A stretch of DNA of 63,866 nucleotides from a virus (IMGVR_UViG_3300037421_000079:1-63866); one strand, 5' to 3'. Shown: positions 816 to 59,577, numbered from the stretch's first letter. The notes: generated by a model not told the origin, from the sequence alone. Translations and numbers: made by a program.

Positions 816-1088
816 CATGCCTATCCGGTTTAGACACACAGTCCTACATCTTGTGTTCAGCCGATTTCGCTCTCTCGATAAGCCAGCGCGACTGTTTGAG
901 CGAACAAAGCCAACGCAAGCATGCGACTTACTTCGGATGGCGCGTTAGCCTTTCCATCTTCGGCGATTTCGTGGAGTTTTTCGGCAACGCGCCCCCAAAC
1001 TCTAGCATGGTGTGAGGCATTCATCGTCCTTACCTCCCTCAACATTTAGTAGGTCTCAGCGTTTGTGTGTGTTAACCGGATAGGCATG
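816..1088. mobile_element. Non-autonomous IS1595-type cassette A (273 bp) with one passenger gene
   Basis: IRs CATGCCTATCCGGTT...AACCGGATAGGCATG; 8-bp TSD GTATGTGG at 808-815 and 1089-1096. Confidence 0.92.
857..1045 (-). CDS. Passenger gene of cassette A (start may be ATG 1024)
   Basis: ORF fills the cassette; GGGAGG RBS before the internal ATG. Confidence 0.65.
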   Translation of the reverse strand: MLREVRTMNASHHARVWGRVAEKLHEIAEDGKANAPSEVSRMLALALFAQTVALAYRESEIG

Positions 1089-1325
1089 GTATGTGGGATA
1101 TCGCTTCTCGGCTTCCTCGCGCGCCTTTGTCTCGATGTCGACTCTCGCCCGGAACCCAACGAGGTGATCCATCAGCCAAGCAACACCTTCTAAAAAATAT
1201 ATCTGCTCGGCTCTTTGCTTGCTGATTGGCGGCAAAATCTCGCGCGGCGACACTGCACGACCCTCACGAGCATCGAACACATAATCGTCGTCGAGCTTAT
1301 TTCGTTTAAGTCCTTGCTCGCTCAC
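1056..1325 (-). CDS. Hypothetical protein; C-terminus altered by cassette A
   Basis: GTG overlaps the polA stop; ends YPTY+HAYPVNTHKR (YPTY+STDT if the cassette is removed). Confidence 0.6.
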   Translation of the reverse strand: MSEQGLKRNKLDDDYVFDAREGRAVSPREILPPISKQRAEQIYFLEGVAWLMDHLVGFRARVDIETKAREEAEKRYPTYHAYPVNTHKR

Positions 1326-3190
1326 TTCTCGTACCTTTCTGACAGTTCGCCTTCGCACGCCAGCGGGATACCGGGCAGCCACACGGGCTCCCTGACCATC
1401 TCGGTCTTGCACCGCTCCAGGTTGACCTCGGCATCCGGGCCTTTGGGGATCAGCACCAGCAGCTCGTCGTGCGGGATATTGAGGATGTGGAACCCCATGC
1501 GTTTGATCCGCACGGCCGCCTGGGTGACGATCAGGCGGCTGACGGCCTCGCACAAGTTCTGGGTGAGCTTGCCGGCGTGGAACGTCTTCCAGCCCGCCCG
1601 CGTGCGCACGCGCCAGTAGCCGTCGCGCTCGAACGGCTTGAGCCGCATGGTCTCCAGCTCCTCGGGGGTCGGCACGTGGTACTCCAGCGTGTCGTAGATC
1701 AGCGGGCAGCCGCCCGGCAAGTATACGCGCTTGTCGCGGATGTGGAAGATGCCCCAGTCTGTCGGTGGGCCGCCCGCGATGCGGGCGATCATGCGACCGG
1801 CGGTGCGCCAGAAGTCGGTTATGCGGGGGGACGAATCCCGGTAGGCGTTGCGCCAGCGCAGTGCGGTATCCAGCTCGATCTTGACGGGCGGGCCGTAGAT
1901 GCCGAGTCGGGCAGTCTTCTGGATCGACTCGGCACCCGCCATGTAACCGCACGAGAGCTTCAACTGCTTGCCGGTCCCACGCTCCAGCTTCATGTCGGGC
2001 GTGACCGGGTAGCCGTACGCGATCGACGCGAGGTTGACGTACGGGTCGTCGCCGCGGCGGAACTCCTCCAGGGCGTCCTCCTGGCCGGCGAGCCACGAGA
2101 GCACGCGGTACTCGATCTGGGCGAGGTCGACAGGCGCGAGCCAGTAGCCCTCGGGCGCCATGACGGCGCGTCGCAGGGGCGACGCTTCCTTGGGACTGTC
2201 CTCGTCCTTGCGCTTGAAATTCTGCCAGTTGGTCTTGTCCCCGCCTGAGAATCGAAGAGTGCCGGCACCCGCGTACAGCAGGTAGACGGGCAGCGGGCCG
2301 CGCCGGGCCGCCCACCCGAGCGTCTCGCACCTGGTCTGCAACATCGTTGATTTGAGGCCCAGGCGAGCCTCCGCGAGCCCTCGCACGCGGTCGTCCTCGT
2401 CGTCGAGCAGCGCCTGCATGAACGGGTCGTTCTTGGCGAACGCCGGGATCGGCCCGTTCTTGCCGTCCTTGTACTCGATCTCGACGCCCTCGGCCTCCAG
2501 CAGCGCCTGGAACTTGGCGGCCGACTGCAGCTCTGTTGGGTCGACCCCGATCTGGTCGACGAGGTCGCGCTTGCGGTCGCGCTCGCGCTCCCAGGTCCGG
2601 GCCAGCAGGTCCACGTCGGCCCGCAAAGCCGGTTCGCAGAACATGTCCATGACGATGTCGATGACGGGCAACTCGTCGCGCGGGAAGCCCTGGTTCAGCA
2701 ACAGGCCGAATATCCTCCAGATCGACTCGACCTCGTCGCACGCGCCGGCCGCCACCTGCTCCTGGACCTGCGGGGTCATCTCGTGCCAATGCTTGCCCCT
2801 GAACAAATTGTAGGGCGTCTGTTTGGGCGCGATGCCGAAGTGCTTGCGCACCGCGTCGAGGCTGACTGACAGGTGGTTGCCAAGCAGCAGCCGGGCCATC
2901 GCGAGCGTGCAGCCGCGCATGGCGGGATGGACGCCATAGTGGTGCGACAGCGCGAGGCCGTCGAACTGGTGGTGATGGGCAACGAGGAACACGTCCGACC
3001 AGTCCTCGTCCCGGGCGATCTGCCGCCACTGCGGCTCGGTGTACCAGCGGGCGTCGTGGTCCTTCGACCACTTGACCGCGATCCCGTGCATACAGAAGCG
3101 CGGGTCGCGGATGTAAGATTCAGTCGTCATCTTGCTGAGCGAGAAATCGTCCGAGTAGAACGACTCAAGGTCGGCGACCACGAACCTCAC
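1322..3190 (-). CDS. polA: Family A DNA polymerase with 3'-5' exonuclease domain
   Basis: Exo DLES and FDG; motif A DLAQIEYR; motif B RGTGKQLKLSCGY; motif C HDEL. Confidence 0.93.
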   Translation of the reverse strand: MRFVVADLESFYSDDFSLSKMTTESYIRDPRFCMHGIAVKWSKDHDARWYTEPQWRQIARDEDWSDVFLVAHHHQFDGLALSHHYGVHPAMRGCTLAMARLLLGNHLSVSLDAVRKHFGIAPKQTPYNLFRGKHWHEMTPQVQEQVAAGACDEVESIWRIFGLLLNQGFPRDELPVIDIVMDMFCEPALRADVDLLARTWERERDRKRDLVDQIGVDPTELQSAAKFQALLEAEGVEIEYKDGKNGPIPAFAKNDPFMQALLDDEDDRVRGLAEARLGLKSTMLQTRCETLGWAARRGPLPVYLLYAGAGTLRFSGGDKTNWQNFKRKDEDSPKEASPLRRAVMAPEGYWLAPVDLAQIEYRVLSWLAGQEDALEEFRRGDDPYVNLASIAYGYPVTPDMKLERGTGKQLKLSCGYMAGAESIQKTARLGIYGPPVKIELDTALRWRNAYRDSSPRITDFWRTAGRMIARIAGGPPTDWGIFHIRDKRVYLPGGCPLIYDTLEYHVPTPEELETMRLKPFERDGYWRVRTRAGWKTFHAGKLTQNLCEAVSRLIVTQAAVRIKRMGFHILNIPHDELLVLIPKGPDAEVNLERCKTEMVREPVWLPGIPLACEGELSERYEK

Positions 3191-3567
3191 AGTCGCGTCT
3201 CCGCGAGCGGCACCAGTCGGTAGCCACACGAGTACGTGGACTTCACGTCGTAGCCTAATTGCCGAAATGCCTTTCTGGCAAAACACGCATAGGAATGCAG
3301 CACCTTGGCGGGTGCGTCGCCCGCGTACGCCTGTCCCAGGACGCCGACAATCAGGACTTCATAACTAATCACGCTGGGCATCGCGCGCACCAGCATGTGG
3401 GCCATCTCGGCCACCCTCGGCATCGTCTTGATCTCGGTGGCGCCGTCCGAGATCAGGTTGTTGTTGAGATCGACCAGCAGGCGGGAAGCCGGCAGGAGTT
3501 GGCGGCAACAGGGGCAGCGGGCGACCTTCGGGGGTCGCGCGGCAGTCACGACGGCGCGCGCGAGCAC
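3187..3567 (-). CDS. Winged-helix (OmpR/PhoB C-terminal-like) DNA-binding protein with CxxC
   Basis: CPCC followed by VISYEVLI...VLHSYACFARK...YSCGYRL pattern. Confidence 0.6.
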   Translation of the reverse strand: MLARAVVTAARPPKVARCPCCRQLLPASRLLVDLNNNLISDGATEIKTMPRVAEMAHMLVRAMPSVISYEVLIVGVLGQAYAGDAPAKVLHSYACFARKAFRQLGYDVKSTYSCGYRLVPLAETRL

Positions 3568-3568
3568 G

Positions 3569-3655
3569 TCACTCCCCCCTGAGCGCCCGCGGAGAGAGGC
3601 GCCAGACCAGCAGGCCAATGATGGCGCCCGTCGCGATGGCAGCCAAGATGCTCAT
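3569..3655 (-). CDS. 28-aa membrane peptide
   Basis: GGAGAGG RBS; MSILAAIATGAIIGLLVWRLSPRALRGE. Confidence 0.5.
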   Translation of the reverse strand: MSILAAIATGAIIGLLVWRLSPRALRGE

Positions 3656-3922: not shown

Positions 3923-6184
3923 GTGCCTACAGCCGACAATCCACTGCTTGAAGCCGCGCTCCAGTACGCCGCTCGCGGCTGGAAAATTTTTCCTCTAGTT
4001 CCGCGCACCAAGCGGCCCGCCATCCGGGGGTGGCGGCAGAAGGCTACCAGCGACCCGGACCAGATCGAGCGGTGGTGGGGCGCGCGGCCGGACTACAACG
4101 TCGGGCTGGCGACCGGCGAGTCGTGCCTGGTGGTGCTCGACCCGGACGGCCCCGAGGGGCTGGCCGAGTTGCACCGGCTGGTGGGCCTGCACGGGCGCCT
4201 GCCGCGCACGCTGGCGAGCCGGACGCCCGGGGGCCATCACTTGCTGTTCCGCGGGTCCGGCGTGCGCTCCACGGCGCGCGGAGACCTGCACGTGCGGGGC
4301 GAGGGCGGGCTGGTGGCGCTGCCGCCGTCGATCCACCCGAGCGGAGTGGCGTACCGGTGGGTCGACGCCAGCTGTCCGATCGCCGACCTGCCGGCCTGGG
4401 TGGGGGCGTGGCGGGCGAGCCTGGGCGGCAGGGTCGAGACGGGACCGGACCTGGGCGCCTTACCGGCTCACCTCGTAGGGCTGCAACGCCGATCGCCCGC
4501 CCGGATCGGTGGAATGTGGTCGCTCCACGAAGAAAGTCGAATACGATCGGCGCTGCAAAGAGTTCCGGCCGATTCCTATCAATCGTGGCTCGAAGTCGGA
4601 ATGGCGCTGCACAGCCTCGGATGGAGTCGGTCAGACGGCACCGATATAGGCTTGGAAATCTTCGACAATTGGTCCGCGACGTGCAGCGAGAAATACAGCC
4701 AGGCGGCAGCCGAGGAAAAGTGGAGCTCATTCGAGCAATCCGGCAGGAGCGGCATACAGATAGGCACTTTGTTTCATCTCGCCGAGGCGCATGGGTGGCG
4801 AGGTGAAGTATTAGTTGATAATAATGGTCACAAGCCATTGAGCCAACAACAAGAAAGCGAGGTGATCCCACATGACCGAATCGGGTCGCATAATGCCCAG
4901 CCCCACGGAGGAGTGCCGCCCCCCGTGGGGCTCTTCGCTGGGGCGCAGGAGGCCGCTGGCGCGCTCGAGCCGGCAGGGGCACTCAACGGGGCGCACGCGC
5001 TGCCGGCCGAACTGGCGGCCGCGCCAGCGGCGGGAATCGTGTTCCCGGACGTGACCCAGAAGGGGAAGCCGGCTGGGACGCGCCACAACGCCATGCTGGC
5101 GATCGAGGGGCTGGGGATCGAGTGCGAAGAGGACACGTTCCACGAGGCGTTCGTGGTGGGCGGGCACTCGCTCGGGCGCCTAGTGGGGGAGATCAGCGAC
5201 AAGGCCATCCACCAGCTGCGCGACCTGATCCGGCGCGTGTTCGGCTTCGAGCCGGGCGCCCAGAACGTCCGGGACGCGGCCGAGACCCTGTGCGTGCAAA
5301 ACCCGTTCGACCCGGTGCTGGACTACCTCGACTGCCTGCGGTGGGACGGGGTGCGGCGCATCGACGCGTGGATGGCGGACTATCTCGGGGCGCCACGGGA
5401 CGAGTGGAGCGCGGCGGTCGGGCGGTTGATGCTGGTCGCCGCGGTCAGGCGCGCGCGCCAGCCCGGCGCCAAGTGGGACCACGTAGTAGTGTGGGAGGGG
5501 CCGCAGGGCGCCGGCAAGTCCCACGTGCTGGAGACGCTGGCAGGCGAGGAGAATTTCAGCGACATGCGGATACTGGGGCGGTCGGAGGAGCGCCAGCACG
5601 AGGCAGTGCGGGGGGTGTGGATATACGAGATCGCGGAACTCGCGGGGATGAAGCGGGCCGAGGTCGAGCACATCAAGGCCTTCGTGACGCGGAAGAAGGA
5701 GAGCACCAGGACGGCCTACGCGCACTACAAGACCCACGACCGGCGCCGCTGCATATTCGTGGCGACCACGAACGAACTGCACTACCTGAAAGACGACACC
5801 GGCAACCGACGATTCTTGCCGATCCGCACGGGAGTCATAGATTGGGCCGCAGTAGCGCGCGACCGCGACCAGCTGTGGGCGGAAGCGGTCGAGGCCGAGC
5901 AGGGATACGGGCCGCTGGTGCTGCCGCACGACGTGCGTTCGCGGGCGAGCGCCGAGCAGGAATCGCGGCTCGTGCTGGACGATTGGCGGGACGTAATCGA
6001 AAGGTGGATAGGGGATAAAACAGAGACCTCGATCGGCGAAACGGTGGTCGGCGCGCTCCACATGCAGGTGCGGGAAATCGACCAGATTTGTTCCACGAGG
6101 ACCGGAAGGATTTTACGGCAACTCGGATTCACGCAATATCGCAAACGCGACGGGGAAAGCCTGTCGTGGCGGTTTAGGCGCTAA
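3923..6184 (+). CDS. Bifunctional primase-polymerase + PriCT-2 + VirE/VapE helicase
   Basis: N-terminal GWKIFPL...NVGLATG...VLDPD...TPGGHH; PriCT-2 YQSWLEVGMAL; Walker A GPQGAGKS; DDTGNRRF. Confidence 0.92.
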   Translation: MPTADNPLLEAALQYAARGWKIFPLVPRTKRPAIRGWRQKATSDPDQIERWWGARPDYNVGLATGESCLVVLDPDGPEGLAELHRLVGLHGRLPRTLASRTPGGHHLLFRGSGVRSTARGDLHVRGEGGLVALPPSIHPSGVAYRWVDASCPIADLPAWVGAWRASLGGRVETGPDLGALPAHLVGLQRRSPARIGGMWSLHEESRIRSALQRVPADSYQSWLEVGMALHSLGWSRSDGTDIGLEIFDNWSATCSEKYSQAAAEEKWSSFEQSGRSGIQIGTLFHLAEAHGWRGEVLVDNNGHKPLSQQQESEVIPHDRIGSHNAQPHGGVPPPVGLFAGAQEAAGALEPAGALNGAHALPAELAAAPAAGIVFPDVTQKGKPAGTRHNAMLAIEGLGIECEEDTFHEAFVVGGHSLGRLVGEISDKAIHQLRDLIRRVFGFEPGAQNVRDAAETLCVQNPFDPVLDYLDCLRWDGVRRIDAWMADYLGAPRDEWSAAVGRLMLVAAVRRARQPGAKWDHVVVWEGPQGAGKSHVLETLAGEENFSDMRILGRSEERQHEAVRGVWIYEIAELAGMKRAEVEHIKAFVTRKKESTRTAYAHYKTHDRRRCIFVATTNELHYLKDDTGNRRFLPIRTGVIDWAAVARDRDQLWAEAVEAEQGYGPLVLPHDVRSRASAEQESRLVLDDWRDVIERWIGDKTETSIGETVVGALHMQVREIDQICSTRTGRILRQLGFTQYRKRDGESLSWRFRR

Positions 6185-42030: not shown

Positions 42031-42033
42031 GGC

Positions 42034-44332: not shown

Positions 44333-44349
44333 GTGGGCGACCTTAGATT

Positions 44350-46947: not shown

Positions 46948-47057
46948 TTATCCCCATCACTGTTTCGGCCCCCCGAACAGTGACAAACTACGGGCGCCAA
47001 ATCCCACGTTGGCGCCCGTAGCCATTTTGACAAATCTTTATTCGTTGGCTATATGGG

Positions 47058-47731: not shown

Positions 47732-47733
47732 AC

Positions 47734-49833: not shown

Positions 49834-49834
49834 C

Positions 49835-50296
49835 TTAGGCTTCTCCTGCTAGTTCATGGATGAGCTTGGCCGCCGCCTGGCGGTTGCCGGGGACGTTGTA
49901 CCAGCGATTCAGGCCGCTGGGGTGGGGGACGCGGTGCCACTCGGTGCCGAGGCACTCTCGGTGCGCGCCCAGGACCGGCACGTCGGCGGGGAGCCGCAGT
50001 GCCCGCCACACCTGCGCGCCCAGGACGATCGTAACGCGGCCCGTGGCGACTCGGTGGAACTCTGCCGCCGCCTCGCGCGCCGCCGCGGCGCTCCAGGCTC
50101 GTCCCGCCACCAGGTTGCGCCGGTCGTACGCGTTCAGGTAGTCGTGCGCGCAGTCGGCTTCCCAGCGCGCGTCGTGCTCGCACAGCATCGAGTAGATTCG
50201 GTGGCCGGTGCACCCGTCGGGCCACGGCACGAGCGCGTCGTCCGGGTTGCTCGACAGCGGGTTGTTCATGCCTAGGAGGATGGGCCTAGCGCTCAC
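49835..50296 (-). CDS. Uracil-DNA glycosylase superfamily protein
   Basis: LLGMNNP, TGHRI, RRNL, IVLG, VPHPSGLNRWYN. Confidence 0.7.
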   Translation of the reverse strand: MSARPILLGMNNPLSSNPDDALVPWPDGCTGHRIYSMLCEHDARWEADCAHDYLNAYDRRNLVAGRAWSAAAAREAAAEFHRVATGRVTIVLGAQVWRALRLPADVPVLGAHRECLGTEWHRVPHPSGLNRWYNVPGNRQAAAKLIHELAGEA

Positions 50297-50697
50297 GTCC
50301 GCCTCACGTTTACGCGCTGGAACCACCCGATGGTGACGCCGGGGGGCGGTGCGCCGGCATGGTCCTGCATGTACTGTCGCGTTGCCTCTTTCTGTATCGA
50401 TGCCAGCAGCATCTCGTTGCCGTAGGTGTCCCAGTTCTCGTTGACGAAGTCGAGGTACTTCTCGCGGTCCTCGATCTTGAGGTTCATGATGGTCGAGATG
50501 TAGGCGGTCCCCGAGTCGGCCCGCACGCTGTCGATCTTCTGCTGCAGCATGAACGCCTGCAGCTGGTCCTCGATCTCGGACAGCCGGTCCTTGGCGCCCT
50601 TGAGGTGCTCGCCGAACCGCTTGGTCTCGGCCTTGACCCAGTCATCGAGACGGATGTGCTCGGCCACGAGGGAGTCGGCGGTCGGTTCGTTGCTCAT
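50293..50697 (-). CDS. Conserved phage replication-module protein
   Basis: Coiled coil + DSVRADSGTAY...PPGV. Confidence 0.7.
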   Translation of the reverse strand: MSNEPTADSLVAEHIRLDDWVKAETKRFGEHLKGAKDRLSEIEDQLQAFMLQQKIDSVRADSGTAYISTIMNLKIEDREKYLDFVNENWDTYGNEMLLASIQKEATRQYMQDHAGAPPPGVTIGWFQRVNVRRT

Positions 50698-50879
50698 CGT
50701 CGCAGCACCGCTTCGACTAGCTGTTTCGCTTCTGGTTTAGCCGGCCAGCTTCCAGGCCAGATTAGTTTATACTCGTCGATCAGGCGCTCGCATGCCATAT
50801 CGACTGTCCATTTACAAAACTTGCATTGGACATAATCCTGATCTTTGCAGTGCTTTGGGCCAATACAATAAAATATCAC
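50694..50879 (-). CDS. Cys-rich small protein whose GTG start is rebuilt by the end of cassette B
   Basis: (V)IFYCIGPKHC...CKFC; original ATG at 51204. Confidence 0.6.
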   Translation of the reverse strand: MIFYCIGPKHCKDQDYVQCKFCKWTVDMACERLIDEYKLIWPGSWPAKPEAKQLVEAVLRR

Positions 50880-51195
50880 GTGCTTATCCGGTTGACACAT
50901 ACAGCCCTACATCTTGTGTCAGCGAATGCGCCACGCGATGACCATGCATCGCCAGCCCAGCCGCAGCATTTCTCTAGCGTTCATGCGGAATTGGACGTGA
51001 GTTTCGGGATTGAGGCTCGAAACTTTGAACATTCCGCCGCCGTAGCTGATTTTTGGGCCAGTAGGGTGCCAAAAAAGCGTCGCATCCTTCGGCCACGGAA
51101 TGTCATGCTCAGCGAAAGCGGCTCTGAGGTTTGCTTCCCGTTGCGTCAACATCTAGTGGGTCTCCCTGTTTGTGTGTGTCAACCGGATAAGCACG
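50879..51195. mobile_element. Non-autonomous IS1595-type cassette B (317 bp) with one passenger gene
   Basis: 21-bp IRs CGTGCTTATCCGGTTGACACA; 8-bp TSD AAATATCA at 50871-78 and 51196-203. Confidence 0.93.
50919..51152 (-). CDS. Passenger gene of cassette B (77 aa)
   Basis: GGGAG RBS lies in the conserved end; ORF spans the whole interior. Confidence 0.7.
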   Translation of the reverse strand: MLTQREANLRAAFAEHDIPWPKDATLFWHPTGPKISYGGGMFKVSSLNPETHVQFRMNAREMLRLGWRCMVIAWRIR

Positions 51196-51200
51196 AAATA

Positions 51201-52805
51201 TCATATCTCCCCCTTCCTGACCATCTCCAGCAGGACGCCCTGCATCGACGTGTTGGTCTCCAGCCGCCGGTATATCTCGCGCTCCAGGGGATTGCTGACG
51301 ATCTGGTATATCGTCGTCGGGTACTTCTGACCTGGTCGATGTACGCGCTTGTTCCCCTGTATCCACAACTCGCCCTTCTCGGTCGGCCCCGCCCAGATCA
51401 CTGTATCGGCTACCACGAACTCGTTGATGCCGTGCGCGGTGGTCTGAGGGTCACACAGGATAACGCGTATCTTGTCATCGTTGGCGAATCGCTGGATTAC
51501 ATCGGGTCTCTCCTTGGCGGGGATTGCGCCGTTGATCGACTCACAGCCCCATCGTTTCGATAATCGCATCTTCAAGATATTCAAGACGCTTGTCAAGGGG
51601 ATAAAAATGACCACCTTCCGGGTGGTGCTGTCAATGATGGCCTCGATCTCCCGCATGCGAGGCTCGGCGTCTACGGTGTGGTACGTATGATCGTCATCAT
51701 AGATCGCCCCGAGCGATATTTGCAGGAACTTGCCACGTGCCACCCCCTCGTTGACGGGGTCGATCGTCTTGCCCGACTTGAGGACGATTTGCAGGTCGCG
51801 CTTGAGCGTGGCCATCTGCTGCTTTTGCTCGGCTGTCAGCTCCACCGAGCGCATCTGCATCGTCATTTCTGGCCCTTGCCAGACTTGAGCTATGTCGAAT
51901 CGAATAGCCGGGATCAACAACTGACGTGCTGCCTCATACCCACCTTTTTTGGGGAACCAGCGAAACGAGAACTGATTGGGCTTGAACATTGTCTCTTGTT
52001 GGAATGTCTTGAATGACTTACCGTGTGCGTTGTTCATCAATTTGGCAAGTCCGTAGGCGTCGGTCGGGGCCTGTGGAGTGGGACTGCCGGTGATCTCCCA
52101 CAAATAAGGGCGCTTGCCGATGATCTCGCGCGCCAGGCGGTGCCGCTTGGTGCTGGCGTCGCTATAACCTGATGCCTCGTCGACGATTACCAGCTTGATG
52201 TCCTTGCGCTCGGCCAAGTCCTTGGAGAACCCATCGAGGTCGAAGCGCTTGCGGGTGTGTGCGCCCACGCCCACACCGTCAAAGTTGATGATCGAGAAGT
52301 CGGCCTTCTTGGCCAATAGCGTGCGGCGTTTCTCGGCCGAACCAGTGAGAATCTCGAACGATCGCTTTCCCAGAAAATTTTTCCACAGCGCCTGTGCCCA
52401 CACATCCTCCAGGATCGTGAGCGGCCCGATGATGAGCGCTCGAAAGTCCTTGCCGAAGCCGCGCATCAAGAAGTCGGCGGCCCACAAGGCAGAAAGCGTT
52501 TTCATCGTACCTGGATCGCTAAGGTTGAAACACCTTGGGTGTAAAACCTGAAAATTCGCCATCACCCGCTGGTGCGCCAGAGGCTTGCGGCCGGGCTCGA
52601 TCGGCCAGTCGTAGTTGGCGTCCGTCATCACGGGCGCGACCGGCAGGTCGAAGTGCCTGAGTATCTGGGAATTGCGCAGCGTGCGGGGCACAGCGATGTA
52701 CTGGCCGTTGACGGCCTTCGCCTCCGGGATCGCCTGCAGGACGAAGGGAGACTGGCTCTTATAGATGAGCAGATTCCGAGTCTGGTCGTGGTAAAAGTTA
52801 GACAT
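51201..52805 (-). CDS. SNF2-family helicase
   Basis: DPGTMKT, IVDEAS, TGSP, HGIN, QGNKRVHRPGQ. Confidence 0.92.
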   Translation of the reverse strand: MSNFYHDQTRNLLIYKSQSPFVLQAIPEAKAVNGQYIAVPRTLRNSQILRHFDLPVAPVMTDANYDWPIEPGRKPLAHQRVMANFQVLHPRCFNLSDPGTMKTLSALWAADFLMRGFGKDFRALIIGPLTILEDVWAQALWKNFLGKRSFEILTGSAEKRRTLLAKKADFSIINFDGVGVGAHTRKRFDLDGFSKDLAERKDIKLVIVDEASGYSDASTKRHRLAREIIGKRPYLWEITGSPTPQAPTDAYGLAKLMNNAHGKSFKTFQQETMFKPNQFSFRWFPKKGGYEAARQLLIPAIRFDIAQVWQGPEMTMQMRSVELTAEQKQQMATLKRDLQIVLKSGKTIDPVNEGVARGKFLQISLGAIYDDDHTYHTVDAEPRMREIEAIIDSTTRKVVIFIPLTSVLNILKMRLSKRWGCESINGAIPAKERPDVIQRFANDDKIRVILCDPQTTAHGINEFVVADTVIWAGPTEKGELWIQGNKRVHRPGQKYPTTIYQIVSNPLEREIYRRLETNTSMQGVLLEMVRKGEI

Positions 52806-53964
52806 TGAAAGCTGCCACGCGCCGTCGAATATCATCCTGTGACTTAGAATCATTCTCGGCTACGATAGTCCGAAATCCTTCTTCGTACGCCGCTTGTGCA
52901 GTTGTACCAGTGCCGCCAAAAGGATCGAGCACCACGCCGTTTGGTGGCGTCACTAGGCGCACGAGCCAGCGCATCAGCGCGAGCGGCTTAATAGTCGGGT
53001 GCTTGGAACCGCCGCGCTCTGCCTTGCTAGCCTTCGCGCAGTAATAAAAGCGATCGACGCCGACCAACTCGCGCCGCTGTCCCGGCAGCATCGCGAAATT
53101 AGTACCGCCGTGCTCGGTGTAGCGTGTATCGGCGGTAGCCTCGCCATCGCGAAAAGTATTGAAGAACCGTGCAGCGCTGCCCGCATCCCCGCGCTTAGCG
53201 AACGCCACGCGACCGAACTCGCCGTAGCACGCGGTGTTCTCATCACCCGTGCGCGATGGCTCTGTGCCGCGCACATCACCCTGCTGTCCCTTCGATTTAG
53301 GAAACCCACCCAAAACTTCGTCGCTGCCATCGTGCACGAGGTTCGTGGGCCAGCGACCAAGGTCCGTAGTACCAATCGCTTTTGAGGATTGCAACGAACC
53401 GTCGACACGACCCGAGAAAGCGTTACCAGCGTACTCGACACCATCGCGCAGCGGATGAACTTCTCGCTTCGGACGGCCTTGTGCTTCGACGCGACACGCG
53501 TCGATGTTCAGTGCGCCAACTCCGTGCGTCGCAAGATTATTTTCAAACGTACCATCGAGCGGTTTGCGAGCAAGCGCGATCGGCTCAGACGCCGGTTTGA
53601 GCGTCGTGCCCCACCCGTCCCACGTGCCATCGAAATTCTTGCCCTTCGGCATGCCCTGTCCGTGCAACCACTGCACCATGTCGAATATTTCGAAGCCAGC
53701 ATCTTCAATCGCGCAACCAAGACGGTGGTACGTGCGCGTTCCAGAAAAAGCCAAAAGATATGCGCCGGGTTTCATTGTTCTTAAAATTGCCTTCCAATAA
53801 AGAGCGCTTGGAACGCCGTGATCCCAGAGCTTGCCCATGAAATTTAAGCCGTAAGGAGGATCAGTAATGGTGGCGTCAATACATGCTGGACGCATAGATG
53901 AAAGCATCTCAAGGCAATCTCCTGGATATAGGTAGATGCGATTTTTTATGAGAATCTCAATCAT
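52798..53964 (-). CDS. Beta-class N6A/N4C DNA methyltransferase
   Basis: TDPPYG...HPTIKP...VLDPFGGTGTT. Confidence 0.92.
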   Translation of the reverse strand: MIEILIKNRIYLYPGDCLEMLSSMRPACIDATITDPPYGLNFMGKLWDHGVPSALYWKAILRTMKPGAYLLAFSGTRTYHRLGCAIEDAGFEIFDMVQWLHGQGMPKGKNFDGTWDGWGTTLKPASEPIALARKPLDGTFENNLATHGVGALNIDACRVEAQGRPKREVHPLRDGVEYAGNAFSGRVDGSLQSSKAIGTTDLGRWPTNLVHDGSDEVLGGFPKSKGQQGDVRGTEPSRTGDENTACYGEFGRVAFAKRGDAGSAARFFNTFRDGEATADTRYTEHGGTNFAMLPGQRRELVGVDRFYYCAKASKAERGGSKHPTIKPLALMRWLVRLVTPPNGVVLDPFGGTGTTAQAAYEEGFRTIVAENDSKSQDDIRRRVAAFNV

Positions 53965-54274
53965 TGCGGCAGTAGCTCGCGCGCCACTTCTCGATCTCGC
54001 TAATAACCTTCTCGGCCGTCCCCCAGAATGCCTTCCCGCCCGCGGCTGTCACCTCGGCCATCCGCCTGTACTGCAGCTTGGTCGGCTCCTTGCCGTCTCG
54101 CTTGACCTCAATGCCGACGAACACACCTTGCTCGCCGCAGACGGACACGCACGCCACGATGTCAGGAACACCTGACTTACCGTAGCCAGCCATCAGGGGC
54201 TTGAAGTACCAGGCACCTATTCGGTCGAGGTACTTCGAGATGTCAGCTTTTTCGTATCCCTCTGGGGTGCGCAT
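53957..54274 (-). CDS. VRR-NUC nuclease / resolvase
   Basis: TPEG...GVPDI...GIEVK...TKLQ. Confidence 0.85.
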   Translation of the reverse strand: MRTPEGYEKADISKYLDRIGAWYFKPLMAGYGKSGVPDIVACVSVCGEQGVFVGIEVKRDGKEPTKLQYRRMAEVTAAGGKAFWGTAEKVISEIEKWRASYCRND

Positions 54275-54534
54275 TTTTGTTCCTCGAATGCCGCTCGCAG
54301 TTTTTTCTGCATGGGTGTCGGATTGTCGCCCACCAGCTCTAATGCTCGCTTGAGGATCACGTCAGACCAGCGGCGCACCGCCGTCTCGGGCGAGTCGCCG
54401 ACCGCCAAGTTGGACGCCCGCCCGGCCTCGGCCAGCACCTGGGCCATCGCCTCGGCGTACTCGATGATGCCCCGCTGGGTCTGCACCACCTTGAGGTAGT
54501 GGGCGACCATGTCGTCGGTGAAGGGGCCGCTCAC
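54217..54534 (-). CDS. Hypothetical protein
   Basis: GTGA coupling with AGGAG RBS. Confidence 0.55.
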   Translation of the reverse strand: MSGPFTDDMVAHYLKVVQTQRGIIEYAEAMAQVLAEAGRASNLAVGDSPETAVRRWSDVILKRALELVGDNPTPMQKKLRAAFEEQKCAPQRDTKKLTSRSTSTE

Positions 54535-55217
54535 TGCTGGCTCCTGTTGTACTCGCAGTCGAGAACAGGACACCATTTGCACAGCGGCCCTTCGACCTTG
54601 TCGAACCACCCCCGCTCGCGGTCGCTCAGGATCAGGGCTACCAGCCGGTTAATCTCGTCCCAGGTGCGCGCCGTATCGGTCAGATCGTACGGCGGCCCCA
54701 GGCGGTTCTCGGCCAGCCACGCATAGCGGCCGACGATCTTCCGCAACTGCGGGAACTTGGCCTTCAGCAGGACCGCGCCGATCTCCAGCTCGAACGCGTC
54801 CTCGCGCGGCTTACCGGACTTCCAGTCGACCATGTAGGCGGTCTCGCCCTCGACGATCGGAGCGTCGATCTTGCCGCGGCCGTAGACGTTGTTGTCGAAG
54901 AACCCGGTGGCCTTGCCGTCACGCGTGATGCCCAGCTTGATCTCGGGGTGCACTTTGCGATTATCGAACGACGAGGCGAAGTGTTCCCAGGGCATGTCGG
55001 CCGGCAGCGGCTGACACTGGCGTCCCAAGCGCCGCTCGAAAGCCTTGTGCACGTCGTCGCCCCGCTTGGTAGCGGCGGTGCCGGTGAACGGGATATGCTT
55101 GTACACGTAGCGCTCGGCTGCCTGGTGGGCGCAGATGTCCCGGTACGTCTTCAGCATCGTGAACGACCAGATAAGCGGTCGGCGGTCCAGGAATGCCGGG
55201 AGTTCGAGAGTGTTCAC
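54531..55217 (-). CDS. PD-(D/E)XK (Cas4/RecB-like) exonuclease
   Basis: WSFT..C, G..VH, E, GKID, VDWKSGK, LCKWCPV..C. Confidence 0.88.
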   Translation of the reverse strand: MNTLELPAFLDRRPLIWSFTMLKTYRDICAHQAAERYVYKHIPFTGTAATKRGDDVHKAFERRLGRQCQPLPADMPWEHFASSFDNRKVHPEIKLGITRDGKATGFFDNNVYGRGKIDAPIVEGETAYMVDWKSGKPREDAFELEIGAVLLKAKFPQLRKIVGRYAWLAENRLGPPYDLTDTARTWDEINRLVALILSDRERGWFDKVEGPLCKWCPVLDCEYNRSQQ

Positions 55218-56617
55218 TCTGCCGCCTGCCTCTGCTCCGCCCGCACCCGCCTGCGTAGCGCCCGCACGATCTCGTCGAACACGCTCGCCCAGTCCTGCCC
55301 CGGTCCCTGGTTGAACGTCCGGTGCTTCTTGTACCACAGGATTCTCTCCCCGCGCGGACCAAGCCTATAATCTCTGCCGAGGAATGAATACGGTATCCAG
55401 ACTTCCTTGCCGGCTAGCCCGGCGATGTGCCCGAGGGCCGACTCGCAGCATACCACGAGGTCGAGGTCGCGGAGAATGTCGAGCGTCGCCACCACGTCGA
55501 CCAGGTAGCCCGACAGGTCGCGGATCACCGGGGCGGCGCCCGCGTCGTGCAGGTCCTTGGCGCGCTCGCCTGCCTGCAGGCTGTAGAGCTGCACGCCGGG
55601 CGCCCGGTACAGGTCGAGGAACTGCTGCACCGGGATCGACCGGTACTTGTTAATGTCGTTCTGGGTCGAGCCCGCCCACGCGATGCCCACGTGGAGCAGC
55701 CGATCCGGCACCTTCCAGTTGGCGGGCGTCTCGTAGACCGGGTAGTCGATGGCGGGCGCGTTCCTGATCTCCTGGTCGGTCAGCCCGAGCGCGAACGGGA
55801 GGCTGACGAACGTCGTCCAGGCATCCGCCTGCGGGAAGCTGATGCCGGCCTGCGGGACCACGTTGACGTTGGGCAGGTGCGCGAACGCGTGGTTGAACAG
55901 CCGCAGCAGCTCGGACGGGATGCTGACATGGACGTACTTGCAGCGCTCGGCCGCGGTCGCCACGAACCGCGAGTACGACAGCGTGTCGCCCAGCCCCTGG
56001 TCGGCCACCAGGAATACGGTCTTATCGCGCTCGCCCGTCCACTTGGGGTACGGGTAGAGCAGGAAGTTGGTGAGCCGGTAGGGATAGCGAGCCTCGAAGT
56101 GGCGAAGGCCCTTCTGGTACTGACCGTCGAACAGGTAGGCGAACGCCGCCGCCATCCCGACGATCGCGTTGGCGGGCTCCAGTGCATAGGCCCTGTCCGC
56201 GCAGGTGACGCTGGCGCGCTGGTCGCCCAGGATGCCGTGGATCAGGCTCAGGTTCATCCACGCGTACGCCAGCGTCGGGTCGAGGTCGACGGCCTTCTGG
56301 GACCACTCCAGGGCCTCGCGGGTCTCGCCCGCCCGGTGCAGGCACCAGCCGATGTTGCACATCGTCTTGGCGCGCTCGGTCTGGTCGGGGATGTCGCACT
56401 CCAGCGCGCGCCGGTAGCACGCGACGGCGGCCTCCACGAGGCTGAGGTCGGAGTCGTTGTTGCCGGCCTGGTAGAACGGGAGCCAGTAGGTGGGGTCCGC
56501 GTAGCAGGCGGAACTGAATAGTTGGAAGCCGTTGTTGGCCCCCTTCGGGTTGGTCTTGTCGTTGACGCTCGCGACGGCAGCGTTGTAAAGTTGGACGGCA
56601 GTCGGACGGTCACCCAC
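55214..56617 (-). CDS. TPR + GT9-like glycosyltransferase
   Basis: TPR repeats; DQGLGD, VGIAWAGS, YSLQ, DLVV..ES..GHIAG. Confidence 0.88.
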   Translation of the reverse strand: MGDRPTAVQLYNAAVASVNDKTNPKGANNGFQLFSSACYADPTYWLPFYQAGNNDSDLSLVEAAVACYRRALECDIPDQTERAKTMCNIGWCLHRAGETREALEWSQKAVDLDPTLAYAWMNLSLIHGILGDQRASVTCADRAYALEPANAIVGMAAAFAYLFDGQYQKGLRHFEARYPYRLTNFLLYPYPKWTGERDKTVFLVADQGLGDTLSYSRFVATAAERCKYVHVSIPSELLRLFNHAFAHLPNVNVVPQAGISFPQADAWTTFVSLPFALGLTDQEIRNAPAIDYPVYETPANWKVPDRLLHVGIAWAGSTQNDINKYRSIPVQQFLDLYRAPGVQLYSLQAGERAKDLHDAGAAPVIRDLSGYLVDVVATLDILRDLDLVVCCESALGHIAGLAGKEVWIPYSFLGRDYRLGPRGERILWYKKHRTFNQGPGQDWASVFDEIVRALRRRVRAEQRQAAE

Positions 56618-56647
56618 GTCTAAATTCTCCGCTCATTTTGGCGCATG

Positions 56648-56839
56648 TTAGGCAAGAGCGTCGTAACAGTGATCGTTTTTGACCGGTTCCCAACTGCACT
56701 TTTCGCAGATGATTCGATCCTTCCCCTCATTGTCGGTGCACGTCATAATACGCATGCGACCGCAGTTCGGACAATCGTCCCCGGTGTAGTTGCCATAAGC
56801 CCACCAGTGATAATCGAGCATCGGCATGGCACATGTCAT
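56648..56839 (-). CDS. Zn-ribbon small protein
   Basis: CPNCGR...CEKC. Confidence 0.7.
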   Translation of the reverse strand: MTCAMPMLDYHWWAYGNYTGDDCPNCGRMRIMTCTDNEGKDRIICEKCSWEPVKNDHCYDALA

Positions 56840-57096
56840 CTATGTCTGCCGTCAATCGGCTCAAAGTCCAAGCCCATTGACGTTGTGGCTTGGAAGATAA
56901 TTCCAGGCGCCGTCATCGCGCTAGCACATTCTTCGGCGTTGCCTGTTTCCATCCAATAAGTTCGAAACTCGTATAGAGAACAGCCTATTTTGCGAGCGGC
57001 CTCCTTCTGGCTTTTGGCTGCAATGACAGTTCGCACTTGTCCGCCATGCTCGCGGCAGCGCTTCGGATTCATCATTAGTCCACCAAAAACCTTCAT
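56836..57096 (-). CDS. Hypothetical protein
   Basis: VIAAKSQKEAA...YWMETGN. Confidence 0.6.
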   Translation of the reverse strand: MKVFGGLMMNPKRCREHGGQVRTVIAAKSQKEAARKIGCSLYEFRTYWMETGNAEECASAMTAPGIIFQATTSMGLDFEPIDGRHR

Positions 57097-57283
57097 GGCT
57101 TTATCCGCTCTTCGCTTATGTCTGCCTACCAAGTCCATCTTTGAATCGGGAAAGCCAATTTGGCCATCCACCGAAAGGGATATGGCCCACGGTGCATGAA
57201 CCATCCCGGCTTTTCAAGGCGACACCACCAGCCACCGTTGCCTGAGAAAACGCTTATCGTTCGGCCTGCGCGCATGGCGGTCT

Positions 57284-57577
57284 CTATTTACATGCGCCGA
57301 GTTCAGCAACGTTTTCTGTCTGAACTACAGGGCGGAATTTATGTGCGTCAAGCGACCACTCCTGTTCATCGCCGTCGCTCCATGGAATAGATGGGTTTGG
57401 AAGCTCAACCAACCGGATACCATAGCCGGGAATGTTCGGCTCTTGATGGATCGACTCAACGGTATAGACCTCGTTCAACTTCGGGCGAAGCGGCATGTAG
57501 GGAGCCGTTTCTGGATTGATCGAATCATCGATGCAGACGACTTTCTGGCCTATTTTGAACATCGGTTCCTCGATCAT
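57284..57577 (-). CDS. SH3-like hypothetical protein
   Basis: FKIGQKVVCID...VYTV...FRP. Confidence 0.7.
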   Translation of the reverse strand: MIEEPMFKIGQKVVCIDDSINPETAPYMPLRPKLNEVYTVESIHQEPNIPGYGIRLVELPNPSIPWSDGDEQEWSLDAHKFRPVVQTENVAELGACK

Positions 57578-57705
57578 TCATCAGCATCTATGGTTGACCC
57601 ATCGTCGGTTTCCAAGCCATCCACATCGCTAATAAAAATCTCAAGCGCGTCAAGGTGAGGTCTGACGCTGTCCGGCAAAGTGCTCCAATCTGTAAAAATC
57701 GTCAT
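57574..57705 (-). CDS. Small acidic protein (43 aa)
   Basis: GAGGGA RBS; ATGA coupling; 12 D/E. Confidence 0.5.
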   Translation of the reverse strand: MTIFTDWSTLPDSVRPHLDALEIFISDVDGLETDDGSTIDADE

Positions 57706-57861
57706 GGTCCCTCGCGATCGTCAGGTACATGCGCTACAAAGGTGAGCCCGCCGGCCGGCCGTCCTTACGGGTAGGCCCCACCGCCCATATAGGGCGCTGG
57801 AAAAAGGATCGACGGGCTCGCCTTCATCGCGCTTGTTCATCAAGACATGCCTATCCGGTTT

Positions 57862-58908
57862 TCACCCATGACCACTAACCGTAGGGTGCTGCCACGTTCC
57901 CTTGTAGAGCCCGTCATAGGTCGGGCTTTCGCCGTTCGCGCCGATGCCGAGCAAGCTGCGAAAGGCGTTGAACGGGTAGAAACGGCGGTTGAAGCGAAAG
58001 GCGAACTCGTTGAGGTAGGCTTGCAGATGCTTCGGGCTGACCGCGCCGTGGTGCGTGCCTTGCAGCCACGCCTTCAGGTTCGAAAAGACCAAGTGGACAA
58101 TGGGCAGATATTCTTCGGCCACGTCGGGCTTGGAGGCTTCGACCACCGGCAGATGCTCGTACCCGCGATCGGCAAGCGAATTGTACCCGCCCCAAGCGTC
58201 CGTGATGACCATCGCGCCGGGGTAGACGGCGGATTCCACAAACTCGCACAATGCCTTGGCGCCCCGGTTCGCGGCGATATCGAGCCGCAGCCGGCCAGCG
58301 TAGCGCCCGCCGCGCCGTTCCGGCTTGTCGCCCTTCTTGGGCGGGCGCTGGCGAACCTCGACGGCTGCGACCACGAGCGTCTTTTCGTCGGCATGGACGC
58401 CCTTGCCTTCGCCCCGGACCACCCCGCCGATGTACGTCTCGTCAATCTCGACGTGGTCGCGCCGGCCAAGGTTGCCGCCGATCATGTCGCGATCCGGCCG
58501 GACCATGCCGGCCCGCAGCTTGTGGAGGATTTGAAAGGCCGTCTCGTACCGGGACAGGCGAAGCTGCCGCTGGAACTGCACCGCCGACAGGCCGGGCGTC
58601 ATGCTCGATACGAGGTAGGCGCCCCAAAACCATACGGCGAGCGGCGTGTGCGTGCGCTCCATGACGCTTGCGGCGGTCAAGGCCGCGTCCCGGCGGCAAG
58701 CCTTGCATCGCAGCACCCCCGGCCGATTTTCGAACCGGTAGGGCTCTCCTTTGACGTGGCACGCCGGGCACGCGAAGCCCTTGGGCCACTTGGCGCTTTC
58801 CAGCCATCGGGCGCAGGCCGCGTCGTTCGGAAAGAGCCGCTGGAACTGCGGCAGCGAACGCGGGAACGGCAGGTGTTCCCATTGGAGCACGTCGGCGTGC
58901 GGGGGCAT
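57862..58908 (-). CDS. tnpA: IS1595-family transposase
   Basis: Zn ribbon CPAC..CKAC; HTH; EIDETY; ITDAWGGY; PIVH...NLK; YLNEFAFRFNRR. Confidence 0.95.
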   Translation of the reverse strand: MPPHADVLQWEHLPFPRSLPQFQRLFPNDAACARWLESAKWPKGFACPACHVKGEPYRFENRPGVLRCKACRRDAALTAASVMERTHTPLAVWFWGAYLVSSMTPGLSAVQFQRQLRLSRYETAFQILHKLRAGMVRPDRDMIGGNLGRRDHVEIDETYIGGVVRGEGKGVHADEKTLVVAAVEVRQRPPKKGDKPERRGGRYAGRLRLDIAANRGAKALCEFVESAVYPGAMVITDAWGGYNSLADRGYEHLPVVEASKPDVAEEYLPIVHLVFSNLKAWLQGTHHGAVSPKHLQAYLNEFAFRFNRRFYPFNAFRSLLGIGANGESPTYDGLYKGTWQHPTVSGHG

Positions 58909-58912
58909 GTTT

Positions 58913-59245
58913 CTACCGCCCCTTGCGCAAATCGTTCAACTTGGCGGTCGCGGCGGCTAGGTCGTCCCGCAGAACAGCACAATGGCCAACGTCCTCAGCG
59001 ACCGCTAGATCATCCGCAAGCTCGCGGACTAGGCGTTCCTGATTCCCCACAAGCTGCTTCTGATTGCGGATCAAGCTGTGCTCAGCATAGCACTTCGGAT
59101 CGCCGACCGTGCCACAGGTGGGGCATTCCGGGCAAATACAGTCGTCAACCGAAGCGCCGCATATGTCGCATGGCCCCTCGTCCTGATCGGGTGGTCCGCT
59201 GCATCCCGGCGGATATGACCAGCCGAAAACTGATCTTCTTGCCAT
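58913..59245 (-). CDS. Cys-rich passenger gene
   Basis: FGWSYPPGC...CDICG...CICPECPTCG...C. Confidence 0.75.
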   Translation of the reverse strand: MARRSVFGWSYPPGCSGPPDQDEGPCDICGASVDDCICPECPTCGTVGDPKCYAEHSLIRNQKQLVGNQERLVRELADDLAVAEDVGHCAVLRDDLAAATAKLNDLRKGR

Positions 59246-59250
59246 GGCGA

Positions 59251-59481
59251 TCACCACCCGAACTCGTCGCCGCGTTCCAAAATGCGGATGTTCGTGCAGC
59301 CGTTATCGCCAAGCAGCGAGCGGACAGCCTCATCCACCGTGGCAAATTCCTTACCCGAGCCGTAGGGCGAGGCCGTAGCCGAAAACCGGCCTTTCCATTC
59401 GTGAATCCGCACGACCTTCCGGTCGGCTCGATATTGCTCTGCAATATGGTCGGCAGAGACTACACAAAGCTGGTTCGCCAT
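59251..59481 (-). CDS. Passenger gene, hypothetical
   Basis: GGAGAGG RBS. Confidence 0.7.
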   Translation of the reverse strand: MANQLCVVSADHIAEQYRADRKVVRIHEWKGRFSATASPYGSGKEFATVDEAVRSLLGDNGCTNIRILERGDEFGW

Positions 59482-59577
59482 CTTCCTCTCCATCAGTGGG
59501 CAGGATCGCCCAATGACGAGACACTAGCACGGGTGGGTGTGGGTGTCAACCGGATAGGCATGCATCAAGACTGCCGC

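Follow-up and report, generated by a model that had tools for sequence, protein, structure and literature searches.

Three IS1595-ended elements in a phage genome: a probable transporter insertion sequence and two single-gene cassettes

Insertion sequence (IS) copies with passenger genes, the transporter ISs (tISs), are identified in passages of PMC3129680 that cite the 2009 paper on the IS1595 family. According to excerpts of PMC8101967 on the features of this family, ISSod11 is among its seven groups, and the zinc ribbon is absent only in the IS1016 group. Mobile insertion cassettes (MICs) are placed by passages of PMC6542083 and PMC3129680 among the elements that rely on the transposase of a related IS. 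In phages, the excerpted account in PMC3029335 describes the mycobacteriophage mobile element (MPME), 439 bp long with the inverted repeats IR-L and IR-R, from independent insertions in Cluster G mycobacteriophages. Here we describe three elements with IS1595-type ends, designated E1, E2 and E3, in the virus record IMGVR_UViG_3300037421_000079, whose 63,866 bp fill the whole stretch of DNA analysed (the window). The record was rated 100% complete, with direct terminal repeats that measured 127 bp, and the window is a complete phage genome. The transporter IS concept reportedly goes back to Siguier, Gagnevin and Chandler in 2009, and groups marked "+" in ISfinder, such as ISPna2+ and ISNwi1+, are tISs. 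Phages are generally considered to carry insertion sequences only rarely, and, to our knowledge, their accessory genes ("morons") usually lack a known vehicle.

The three window elements probably represent one IS1595 lineage (we put the probability at roughly 0.8), with E3 as an autonomous transporter IS and E1 and E2 as mobile insertion cassettes, all holding cargo carried by the phage. All three are oriented along the minus strand: E1, a 273-bp transposase-less cassette of the MIC type, at 816-1088; E2, a 317-bp transposase-less cassette, at 50879-51195; and E3, 1717 bp, at 57846-59562. Each has inverted ends (CATGCCTATCCGGTT on both sides of E1, CGTGCTTATCCGGTT in E2) and is flanked by a perfect 8-bp direct repeat, or target-site duplication (TSD), of its own: GTATGTGG for E1 (808-815 and 1089-1096), AAATATCA for E2 (50871-50878 and 51196-51203) and CATCAAGA for E3 (57838-57845 and 59563-59570). 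When the six ends were aligned, the terminal 15 bases, CRTGCYTATCCGGTT, were nearly invariant and were followed by a looser nACACnCAC stretch; within each element the inverted repeats are identical over 15 nt and similar over about 25 nt. The core GCYTATCCGGTT, with at most one mismatch allowed, matched the window six times, at exactly the six ends and three times per strand, and no copy was found in the record beyond them. Shuffled sequence gave a mean of 0.41 matches, and none of 100 shuffles reached six. E1 and E3 have in common the rarer GCC end variant, with GCT in most relatives. The inverted ends and perfect 8-bp duplications thus show that E1, E2 and E3 were placed by DDE transposition.

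The transposase gene of E3 (57862-58908, minus strand, 348 aa) stops 16 nt from the element end. Its product matches PF12762 (DDE_Tnp_IS1595, 1.4e-32, profile positions 4-153 of 153) and PF12760 (Zn_ribbon_IS1595, 1.1e-11, residues 27-73), and is 55-81% identical to 28 other transposases. C47, C50, C68 and C71 (CxxC...CxxC), together with D156, D237, E301 and R308, are invariant in 27 full-length relatives, and the last four are probably the catalytic residues. No transposase similarity was detected in E1 or E2 by Pfam or blast comparison. A DDE domain, a zinc ribbon, an 8-bp TSD and terminal inverted repeats (TIRs), the features of the IS1595 family, are all present. The initial annotation of this DNA had read from it three elements with CRTGCYTATCCGGTT ends and individual 8-bp TSDs, at exactly the coordinates given here, a transposase in E3 only, and an IS1595 affiliation of ends, duplications and transposase; the end scan and the two Pfam domains bear this out. 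For the ISSod11 group, the ISfinder family table reportedly gives a length of 1000-1100 bp, ends of the form nnnGcnTATC and duplications of 8 bp. Elements of the window lineage begin CATGCYTATCC, and plain bacterial copies are 1064-1180 bp long with 8-bp duplications; membership in the ISSod11 group is a lead rather than a result. When the transposase was compared by tblastn with cultured phages (INPHARED), three records with 26-33% identity were returned and no close relative.

In the direction of transcription E3 consists of an end, a leader of about 70 nt, two passenger genes, the transposase gene and the second end. The first passenger (59251-59493, minus strand), taken from the open reading frame (ORF) list with a crude coding score of 11.7, encodes 80 aa; a start at the ATG of 59479-59481, in front of which lies GGAGAGGAAG, would give 76 aa. 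It has a weak PHROG match (0.084), and the 76-aa form scored 0.84 in the Atlas comparison, below the level that the tool treats as meaningful. The second passenger (58913-59257, minus strand) encodes 114 aa if read from a GTG and 110 aa if the ATG at 59245 is the start. Its 152 homologues all lack a Pfam domain. The AlphaFold2 model of the passenger (mean predicted local distance difference test score, pLDDT, 86.8) predicts a cysteine-rich knuckle followed by a long helix; no match was found in PDB or BFVD, either by fold (Foldseek, E ≤ 0.001) or by sequence. Two ORFs unrelated to transposition thus lie between an end and the transposase gene, as in a transporter IS by definition. A conserved accessory gene upstream of the transposase was considered and rejected: a hidden Markov model of the 114-aa family matched, among tIS copies, only the ORF of the window itself, and a family absent from the other copies is not an accessory of transposition. 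In the leaders of tISs (59494-59562 of the window and the first 90 nt of 12 others) the first 20 nt are invariant, and 12 of 13 have a TGCTAG box at about nt 34-39. In about half of the 13 leaders a short hairpin rich in GC immediately precedes the Shine-Dalgarno sequence; the idea that all 13 share a conserved RNA structure was rejected when RNAalifold gave no pairs.

E1 and E2 share their ends and differ inside. The ends upstream of the ORFs are alike over about 50 nt (42/50 identical) and the other ends over about 41 nt (35/41), and the interiors gave no mutual match by blastn or blastp. Each interior holds one ORF, with its start codon about 43-65 nt inside one end and its stop about 40 nt short of the opposite end. 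In E2 this is a 77-aa ORF (50919-51152, minus strand) whose start codon and first three codons (M-L-T) lie within the end motif ACTAGATGTTGA. For its product 18 homologues were found, 57-88% identical and with 8 columns invariant, and the MLT N terminus encoded by the end motif occurs only in cassette copies (3 of 19 sequences of the family). Members of the family also stand free in viral contigs, without IS ends, in L252 (84% aa identity) and in L254-L256 (49-53%), and L253 has an E2-type cargo in a one-ended, shortened cassette. Between the E2 cargo and the free-standing gene of L252 the ratio of nonsynonymous to synonymous substitution rates (dN/dS) is 0.07. The AlphaFold2 model of the product was poor (pLDDT 66.4). 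In the soil run X3, a 40-nt unitig resembling the left end of E2 at 50881-50919 (three differences) had a depth of 331, with the rest of the phage at about 0-2; an E2-type cassette end is highly repeated in the community of that run.

The ORF of E1 (860-1024, minus strand, 55 aa) begins with the ATG at 1022-1024, which has GGGAGG 8 nt before it, and stops at 857-859; the upstream end of the element is at 1088 and the downstream end at 816. An alternative in-frame ATG at 1043-1045, within the conserved end motif, would extend the product to 62 aa. Two homologues, of 54 and 69 aa and with the same start, MNA..H..VW, were found at E values of 1.1e-4 and 9.8e-4 among 1.8 billion representatives; no Pfam or PHROG match was obtained, and a word-based search returned only the query itself. 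The end architecture of E1 matches that of about a dozen other viral cassettes of 273-889 bp.

These cargo data bear on the simplest alternative, namely that the elements are ordinary selfish IS debris, in which E3 caught adjacent DNA by chance and E1 and E2 are MITEs (miniature inverted-repeat transposable elements) with chance GC-rich ORFs and no cargo biology. Long random ORFs are expected in GC-rich sequence, bacterial relatives of the elements do form noncoding MITEs of 110-270 bp, and the ORF of E1 has just two weak homologues. Among 37 short viral elements, the median fraction occupied by the longest ORF was 0.77, compared to 0.48 in shuffled sequences, and only 14 of the 37 were individually significant (P ≤ 0.05). 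However, the homologues of the E1 product match it in start and length, the E2 product has its 18 homologues, 8 invariant columns and a dN/dS of 0.07, and the 114-aa passenger of E3 has 152 homologues and a confidently predicted fold. Furthermore, the cargos of the family match 29 PHROG families in all, and the ORF starts are fixed at 33-60 nt from one particular end. We therefore regard the debris explanation as very improbable. A MITE is short and noncoding, and E1 and E2 each hold a gene with homologues; both have what defines a MIC, IS ends around a coding sequence other than a transposase. The proposal in the initial annotation that the two short elements share 40-50 bp at each end around unrelated interiors, each filled by one gene, agrees with the end identities, the null interior matches and the homologues of both products.

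Viral contigs were sampled in two ways: by a scan with a 17-letter end pattern (at least 118 loci on about 110 contigs) and, so that viral and bacterial copies could be contrasted independently of that pattern, by a scan seeded with a transposase alignment (79 loci), which shares many contigs with the first. The counts from the end-pattern scans, viral and bacterial, hold among the matches listed. At least 70 end pairs with a perfect 8-bp TSD were found in the viral loci, 67 of them beyond the three of the window, and at least 62 distinct TSD-bounded elements of 207-2563 bp (59 in addition to the window's own). A transposase is encoded in 21 of the 62. Twenty of these have one to three co-oriented ORFs in a stretch of 477-981 nt upstream of the transposase gene, and the remaining one has 1429 nt of cargo downstream. 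The other 41 lack a transposase; 37 of them are shorter than 1100 bp and mostly contain one ORF that starts 33-60 nt from one particular end. This upstream end of the cassettes has a conserved subterminal motif, ..CCnACTAGATGTnG.., with a Shine-Dalgarno sequence; in several cassettes, including E2, the ATG and the first codons are also part of it. In the transposase-seeded sample, 44 of 79 loci had both ends and a perfect TSD; 41 of the 44 were loaded (1468-2563 bp), and the 3 plain ones were a single 1150-bp IS that occupies three targets; the records concerned are, to judge by their names, isolate genomes. At least 244 ends were counted in about 1 Mb of sampled viral loci.

The pooled cargo and passenger ORFs of both viral samples, 160 with some redundancy, fell into 112 blastp clusters, of which 78 were singletons and 2 combined cassette cargo with tIS passengers. 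A search for such paired ends and TSDs elsewhere had been proposed in the initial annotation, along with the warning that the ends might always enclose the same sequence or transposase debris; the cargo of the at least 62 elements found varies widely. Pfam matched 1 of 40 cargo ORFs and gave two families among 36 passenger ORFs, and 12 and 17 PHROG families, respectively, were found in the same sets (the Pfam scans omitted one duplicate among 41 cargo ORFs and, among 40 passenger ORFs, four near-duplicates). The named PHROG matches are DNA methyltransferases and proteins resembling 3'-phosphoadenosine-5'-phosphosulfate (PAPS) reductase; PADLOC added SspD-like and methyltransferase matches. Because the few cargos of recognizable function are DNA-modification enzymes, the cargo content suggests counter-defence roles. 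Sequence profiles of PDB gave nothing below E = 0.2 for the cargo proteins of the window. A dN/dS of 0.23 was obtained for the 194-aa cargo of a 675-bp cassette that occurs at two target sites, and, as judged from substitution patterns, cargo is under purifying selection. A free-standing homologue (77% nt identity) of the cargo of the 634-bp cassette L080 lies at L281:1843-2181, about 240 nt upstream of a tIS end and without cassette ends.

Bacterial genomes contain relatives of a different make-up. An end-pattern scan gave at least 120 loci from many phyla, mostly in metagenome-assembled genomes (MAGs), with at least 30 end pairs that have an 8-bp TSD. The TSD-bounded bacterial elements were plain ISs of 1064-1180 bp filled by the transposase gene, 15 elements of 110-268 bp, and a few loaded ones; among the matches listed, 7 of 9 transposase-bearing elements were plain and 2 of 9 loaded. 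Plain elements, 0 of 21 in the viral sample and 7 of 9 in the bacterial one, thus differed in frequency (Fisher test, P = 1.8e-5), also after collapsing to rough, hand-entered counts of 0 of 15 and 5 of 7 (P = 8e-4). In a maximum-likelihood transposase tree with 20 of the 21 viral transposases (that of L010 fell to the length filter), the labels viral and bacterial required 4 changes, compared to about 8 when shuffled; a value as low occurred in 1 of 500 shuffles for the viral label and in 0 of 500 for the bacterial label. Loaded viral transposases formed clades apart from the plain bacterial ones, and the lone "bacterial" member of a viral clade was a loaded copy on an 8.8-kb MAG contig.

In one Rhodospirillaceae MAG (L133, L136, L153, L162, L170, L173, L179, L190, L199 and others) many contigs end 30-50 nt inside an IS end, so the element is multicopy there and interrupts the assembly; many copies are likewise present in a Myxococcales MAG and in Desulfobacteraceae MAGs. 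A 268-bp TSD-bounded element (L165:1940-2207) lies on a contig binned as archaeal (Conexivisphaerales MAG), from either a binning error or occurrence across domains.

The difference between viral and bacterial copies would be uninformative if the load were an artefact of sampling and classification, with bacterial ISs lying in prophages by accident, unreliable labels and swept-up phage DNA, and no selection or specialization. The ends are indeed widespread in MAGs of many phyla, three plain copies lie in records classed as viral, one loaded copy lies in two MAG bins on 8.8-kb contigs, and both end-pattern scans give lower bounds. Against this, the window, a complete genome of the virion type that bears terminal repeats, is no prophage fragment, the loaded state was found in 41 of 44 viral but 2 of 9 bacterial elements, and the loaded viral transposases fall into clades of their own. 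Chance capture also accords poorly with passengers that are tightly packed, co-oriented, always on the same side of the transposase gene and behind a conserved leader, or with purifying selection on cargo. An artefact of this kind is improbable, though less so than mere IS debris.

The four passenger ORFs of the window are all on the minus strand, as is the surrounding gene block (47938-63847 continued by 1-3286), which contains all three elements pointing its way and includes Pfam matches to a family A DNA polymerase, an SNF2-type helicase, a resolvase and an epimerase. The label "early region" for this block would follow from the neighbouring replication genes only. All three insertions are at gene junctions. 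Across the family, 35 of 52 viral insertions were at gene boundaries (within 20 nt of a called gene end, or intergenic), compared to 35% of controls (P = 2e-6), and where the neighbours share a strand the elements were in the same orientation 34 times and in the opposite one 5 times (P = 1e-6), with neighbours mixed or undetermined in 13 cases; these figures are indicative, the gene caller, self-trained on codon usage and applied to empty-site reconstructions, being crude. Both propositions of the initial annotation on this point, co-orientation with the surrounding operons and insertion at or near gene boundaries, hold in the window and are supported across the family.

E1 sits 225 nt past the stop codon of the polymerase gene (1322-3286, minus strand; PF00476, 5.9e-11), which has the top coding score of the region and lies upstream of the element. 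Directly downstream is a small conserved gene (665-796, minus strand, 43 aa from a GTG). When the reconstructed empty site of E1 was used as a tblastn query, homologues were found immediately behind polA, in L129 at 44% over 80 columns and in L125 at 46% over 46. In these relatives conservation begins a few codons upstream of the GTG of the window, across the insertion point, so E1 may have clipped the start of this gene. The polA genes of the related phages L129 (4522-5040) and L130 (4957-5678) are split by inserts of about 520 and about 720 nt with HNH-like motifs. IS1595 insertions were rejected as an explanation: the inserts are HNH-like ORFs without the ends described here and look like homing endonuclease or intein-type sequences.

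E2 lies between the SNF2-type helicase gene (51201-52853, minus strand; PF00176, 1.5e-7; PF00271, 8.1e-7), which ends inside the E2 target, and a 61-aa gene (50694-50879, minus strand) taken from the ORF list and the empty-site ORFs, for which no Pfam match was found. In the reconstructed empty site, the ATG of the 61-aa gene overlaps the helicase stop (ATGA), and the target holds the last two bases of that ATG. After insertion the helicase stop is kept (TGA at 51201-51203, in the right duplication), and the 61-aa gene begins with GTG, the first G being the last base of E2; this GTG probably serves as its start. The insertion point of E3 is between a weakly coding small ORF and the stop of a 143-aa gene (59578-60009, minus strand; ORF list and coding score) that ends 7 nt upstream of the E3 target; no Pfam match was found for this gene. 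Just upstream, in the same strand block at 60410-62378, are genes for a serine resolvase (PF00239, 8.2e-27) and an NAD-dependent epimerase/dehydratase (PF01370, 2.4e-37). The latter is unusual as a phage gene and may be a further acquired accessory gene. A blastn comparison of 40000-47900 with cultured phages gave no match.

In consensus scans of E1, E2 and E3, which assume sigma-70-type signals in the host, neither a promoter-like site directed into the cargo nor a terminator-like site was found. This and the co-orientation suggest that the cargo is expressed by read-through from the phage operon.

The target is AT rich and palindromic, with the logo GWWYRWWC, a T two bases before the duplication and an A two bases after it. 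The G at position 1 is sharp in bacteria (92% of 28 sites) and weaker in viruses (40% of 61 sites). Evidence of movement came from several members of the family. The 675-bp cassette occurs in a viral contig and, as an 80% identical copy at another 8-bp target, in a Ferrovibrio genome, and copies of 235-241 bp that are 95.9% identical lie at three different targets in one viral contig. In L124 (4103-4587 and 7646-9329), a 1191-bp transposase-less element has flanks that occur uninterrupted 3.5 kb away with 222/223 and 273/273 identical positions, which points to a recent insertion. The occupied copy reaches the contig end, and the empty copy is either a recently duplicated segment or a co-assembled population variant. 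On the viral contig to which L101 and L013 belong, a repeat of about 220 nt is present four times (L101:1-219; L013:2523-2746, 5662-5892 and 12084-12303), two of which are occupied by different cassettes, of 545 and 389 bp, at points 9-13 nt apart, with the other two empty. The repeat resembles the 5' region of a paralogous gene. An array of two unlike cassettes occupies L123:3538-4588, and one 8-bp sequence, GAAAGAAC, precedes the first, separates the two and follows the second; here the duplicated target was struck again.

At L074:9690-9802 the right end of a cassette is followed by 8 bp and then by a 35-bp solo end of another subtype, and the TSD pairs with the outer end. This composite hints that a surrogate distal end can be used, which would be one route to extra DNA. 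The candidates for how cargo enters are that a tIS loses its transposase, that a surrogate distal end is used, or that recombination takes place within the conserved leader and transposase.

Instead of being moved as units, the cassettes could be relics of old transposition whose ends now serve as patches of homology, with cargo variety generated by phage recombination, homologous or illegitimate, at the ends, as at the linkers of mosaic phages. Several observations fit: the failure to find any recent cassette derived from a tIS, the 20% divergence of copies of the same cassette at different sites, the one-ended truncated cassette in L253, the composite right end in L074, and a conserved leader and transposase with differing genes between them, exactly as flanking homology would produce. 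However, perfect 8-bp duplications at 70 or more end pairs indicate that each of these was placed by transposition, and the near-identical short copies at different TSDs on one contig, the uninterrupted flanks in L124 and the tandem re-use of one target in L123 also speak for movement. As a substitute for transposition, recombination at the ends is unlikely, although somewhat less so than a sampling artefact; the two processes do not exclude each other.

The reading of E1, E2 and E3 as one cargo-carrying IS1595 lineage has to accommodate several findings that weigh against it. Past the first 15-25 nt or so, the ends of E1 and E2 are closer to a sister tIS group (L048/L071 type) than to E3. Empty-site alleles, which the initial annotation had suggested looking for in related phages, were found for two other members of the family (L124 and the L101/L013 contig) but for none of the three window elements. 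The window helicase had no relatives in the viral contigs searched, and the nearest relatives of the window polymerase, seven loci, are 31-65% identical, too distant for empty sites at the nucleotide level. In Logan contigs of three soil runs, of which two (X1 and X2) contain the phage, the elements were in place and no joint skipped exactly one of them, which is no evidence either way because such contigs drop rare variants; joints from 50881-50919 to other places were cross-matches of element ends. Among the cassettes no recent transposase-deletion derivative of a known tIS was found, the best cargo match being 69% at the nucleotide level. Comparisons with Pfam, PHROG, PDB, BFVD and Atlas assigned no function to any of the four window cargos, and the 80-aa ORF of E3, with no supporting homologue in the PHROG and Atlas comparisons, is the least supported of the four genes. 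With regard to placement, 17 of the 52 sites were called "inside" a gene, the statistics rest on a crude caller, and an earlier orientation test based on stop-to-stop ORF length was noisy and mostly undecided (12 versus 6). The scan counts are lower bounds from viral samples that overlap, and some "bacterial" MAG contigs may be phage and some "viral" ones prophage, the records of the three plain copies included.

We propose the following course of events. E3, with its conserved end and leader, two unrelated small genes and a zinc-ribbon DDE transposase, would act as an autonomous transporter IS. All three elements arrived by DDE transposition and now lie at junctions of replication-block genes, along the direction of transcription. 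The end upstream of the cargo provides a ribosome-binding site and, in E2, the start codon as well, and the cargo would be expressed by read-through of the phage operon. A cognate transposase, that of E3 or of a relative carried by a co-resident genome, may move E1 and E2 by acting on their ends. Phages would then keep only those copies that bring a useful or harmless gene without breaking an operon.

A more far-reaching proposal, which we advance tentatively and hold to be somewhat short of an even chance, is that a phage-specialized IS1595 branch constitutes a dispersed gene-cassette system. Its ends would serve as portable expression adaptors that bring a ribosome-binding site and sometimes a start codon, the AT-rich palindromic target would steer insertions to operon junctions, and the hundred-plus cargo families, largely for counter-defence or host takeover, would be ferried between unrelated phages; since each insertion regenerates its target, arrays could build up. 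If this proposal is true, the cassettes are a ready catalogue of phage accessory functions, and the transposase is a natural tool for loading genes into phage genomes.

The lineage described here may be of use in other ways. IS1595-ended elements are an abundant vehicle for phage accessory genes, with a different small gene in almost every copy, and paired ends with an 8-bp duplication are a signature by which phage genes that are mobile, dispensable and probably adaptive can be picked out among "hypothetical proteins." The family offers a model, open to testing, in which a selfish IS becomes a cargo carrier under selection in a compact viral genome, and a candidate transposase and set of ends with which genes might be inserted into phages that infect Proteobacteria of soil and freshwater. 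The orphan DNA methyltransferase and the PAPS-reductase- and SspD-like cargos point, as a hypothesis, to counter-defence by DNA modification.

In the openly accessible papers searched, cassettes with IS1595 ends were not found described from phages; judged from sequence, the elements are a phage-adapted form of a known kind of element. The initial annotation had called them an "integron-like" shuttle. The likeness to integron cassettes would be one of function only, in single-gene, apparently promoterless units that lie along an external transcript, vary in content and occasionally form arrays (L123). Integrons have attC and attI sites, the IntI tyrosine recombinase and a single platform, and their cassettes insert with no duplication of the target, whereas the elements here have transposon ends, a DDE transposase and dispersed sites. 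No attC/attI-type boundary was found, the window elements being bounded by TIRs and TSDs, and the only recombinase seen was the serine resolvase at 60410-61123 (no scan of the whole window for integrases was made). The term is therefore not supported except as an analogy.

By analogy, the nearest known precedent in phages would be MPME. Like the elements described here, MPME1 and MPME2 are small, have inverted repeats, lie inside phage genomes and are present or absent among related phages; they differ in that there are one or two fixed types and an odd 6-bp addition in place of an 8-bp duplication. The passage of PMC3029335 describes neither an IS1595 transposase partner nor variable cargo.

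E1 and E2 resemble MICs such as MIC231, of IS231 in the Bacillus cereus group, in having IS ends around a gene other than a transposase and in being presumably moved in trans. In contrast to MIC231, they belong to a different IS family and lie in phage genomes, co-oriented at gene junctions; dozens of single-gene cargos are found here between near-identical ends, and translation signals lie within the end. E3, for its part, shares with the tISs of the IS1595 family a zinc-ribbon DDE transposase, inverted ends, an 8-bp duplication and genes unrelated to transposition. It is set apart from tISs as described by passengers that lie upstream of the transposase gene behind a leader of about 70 nt, are small and of phage type and vary from copy to copy, and by a loaded state that is the rule in viral contigs.

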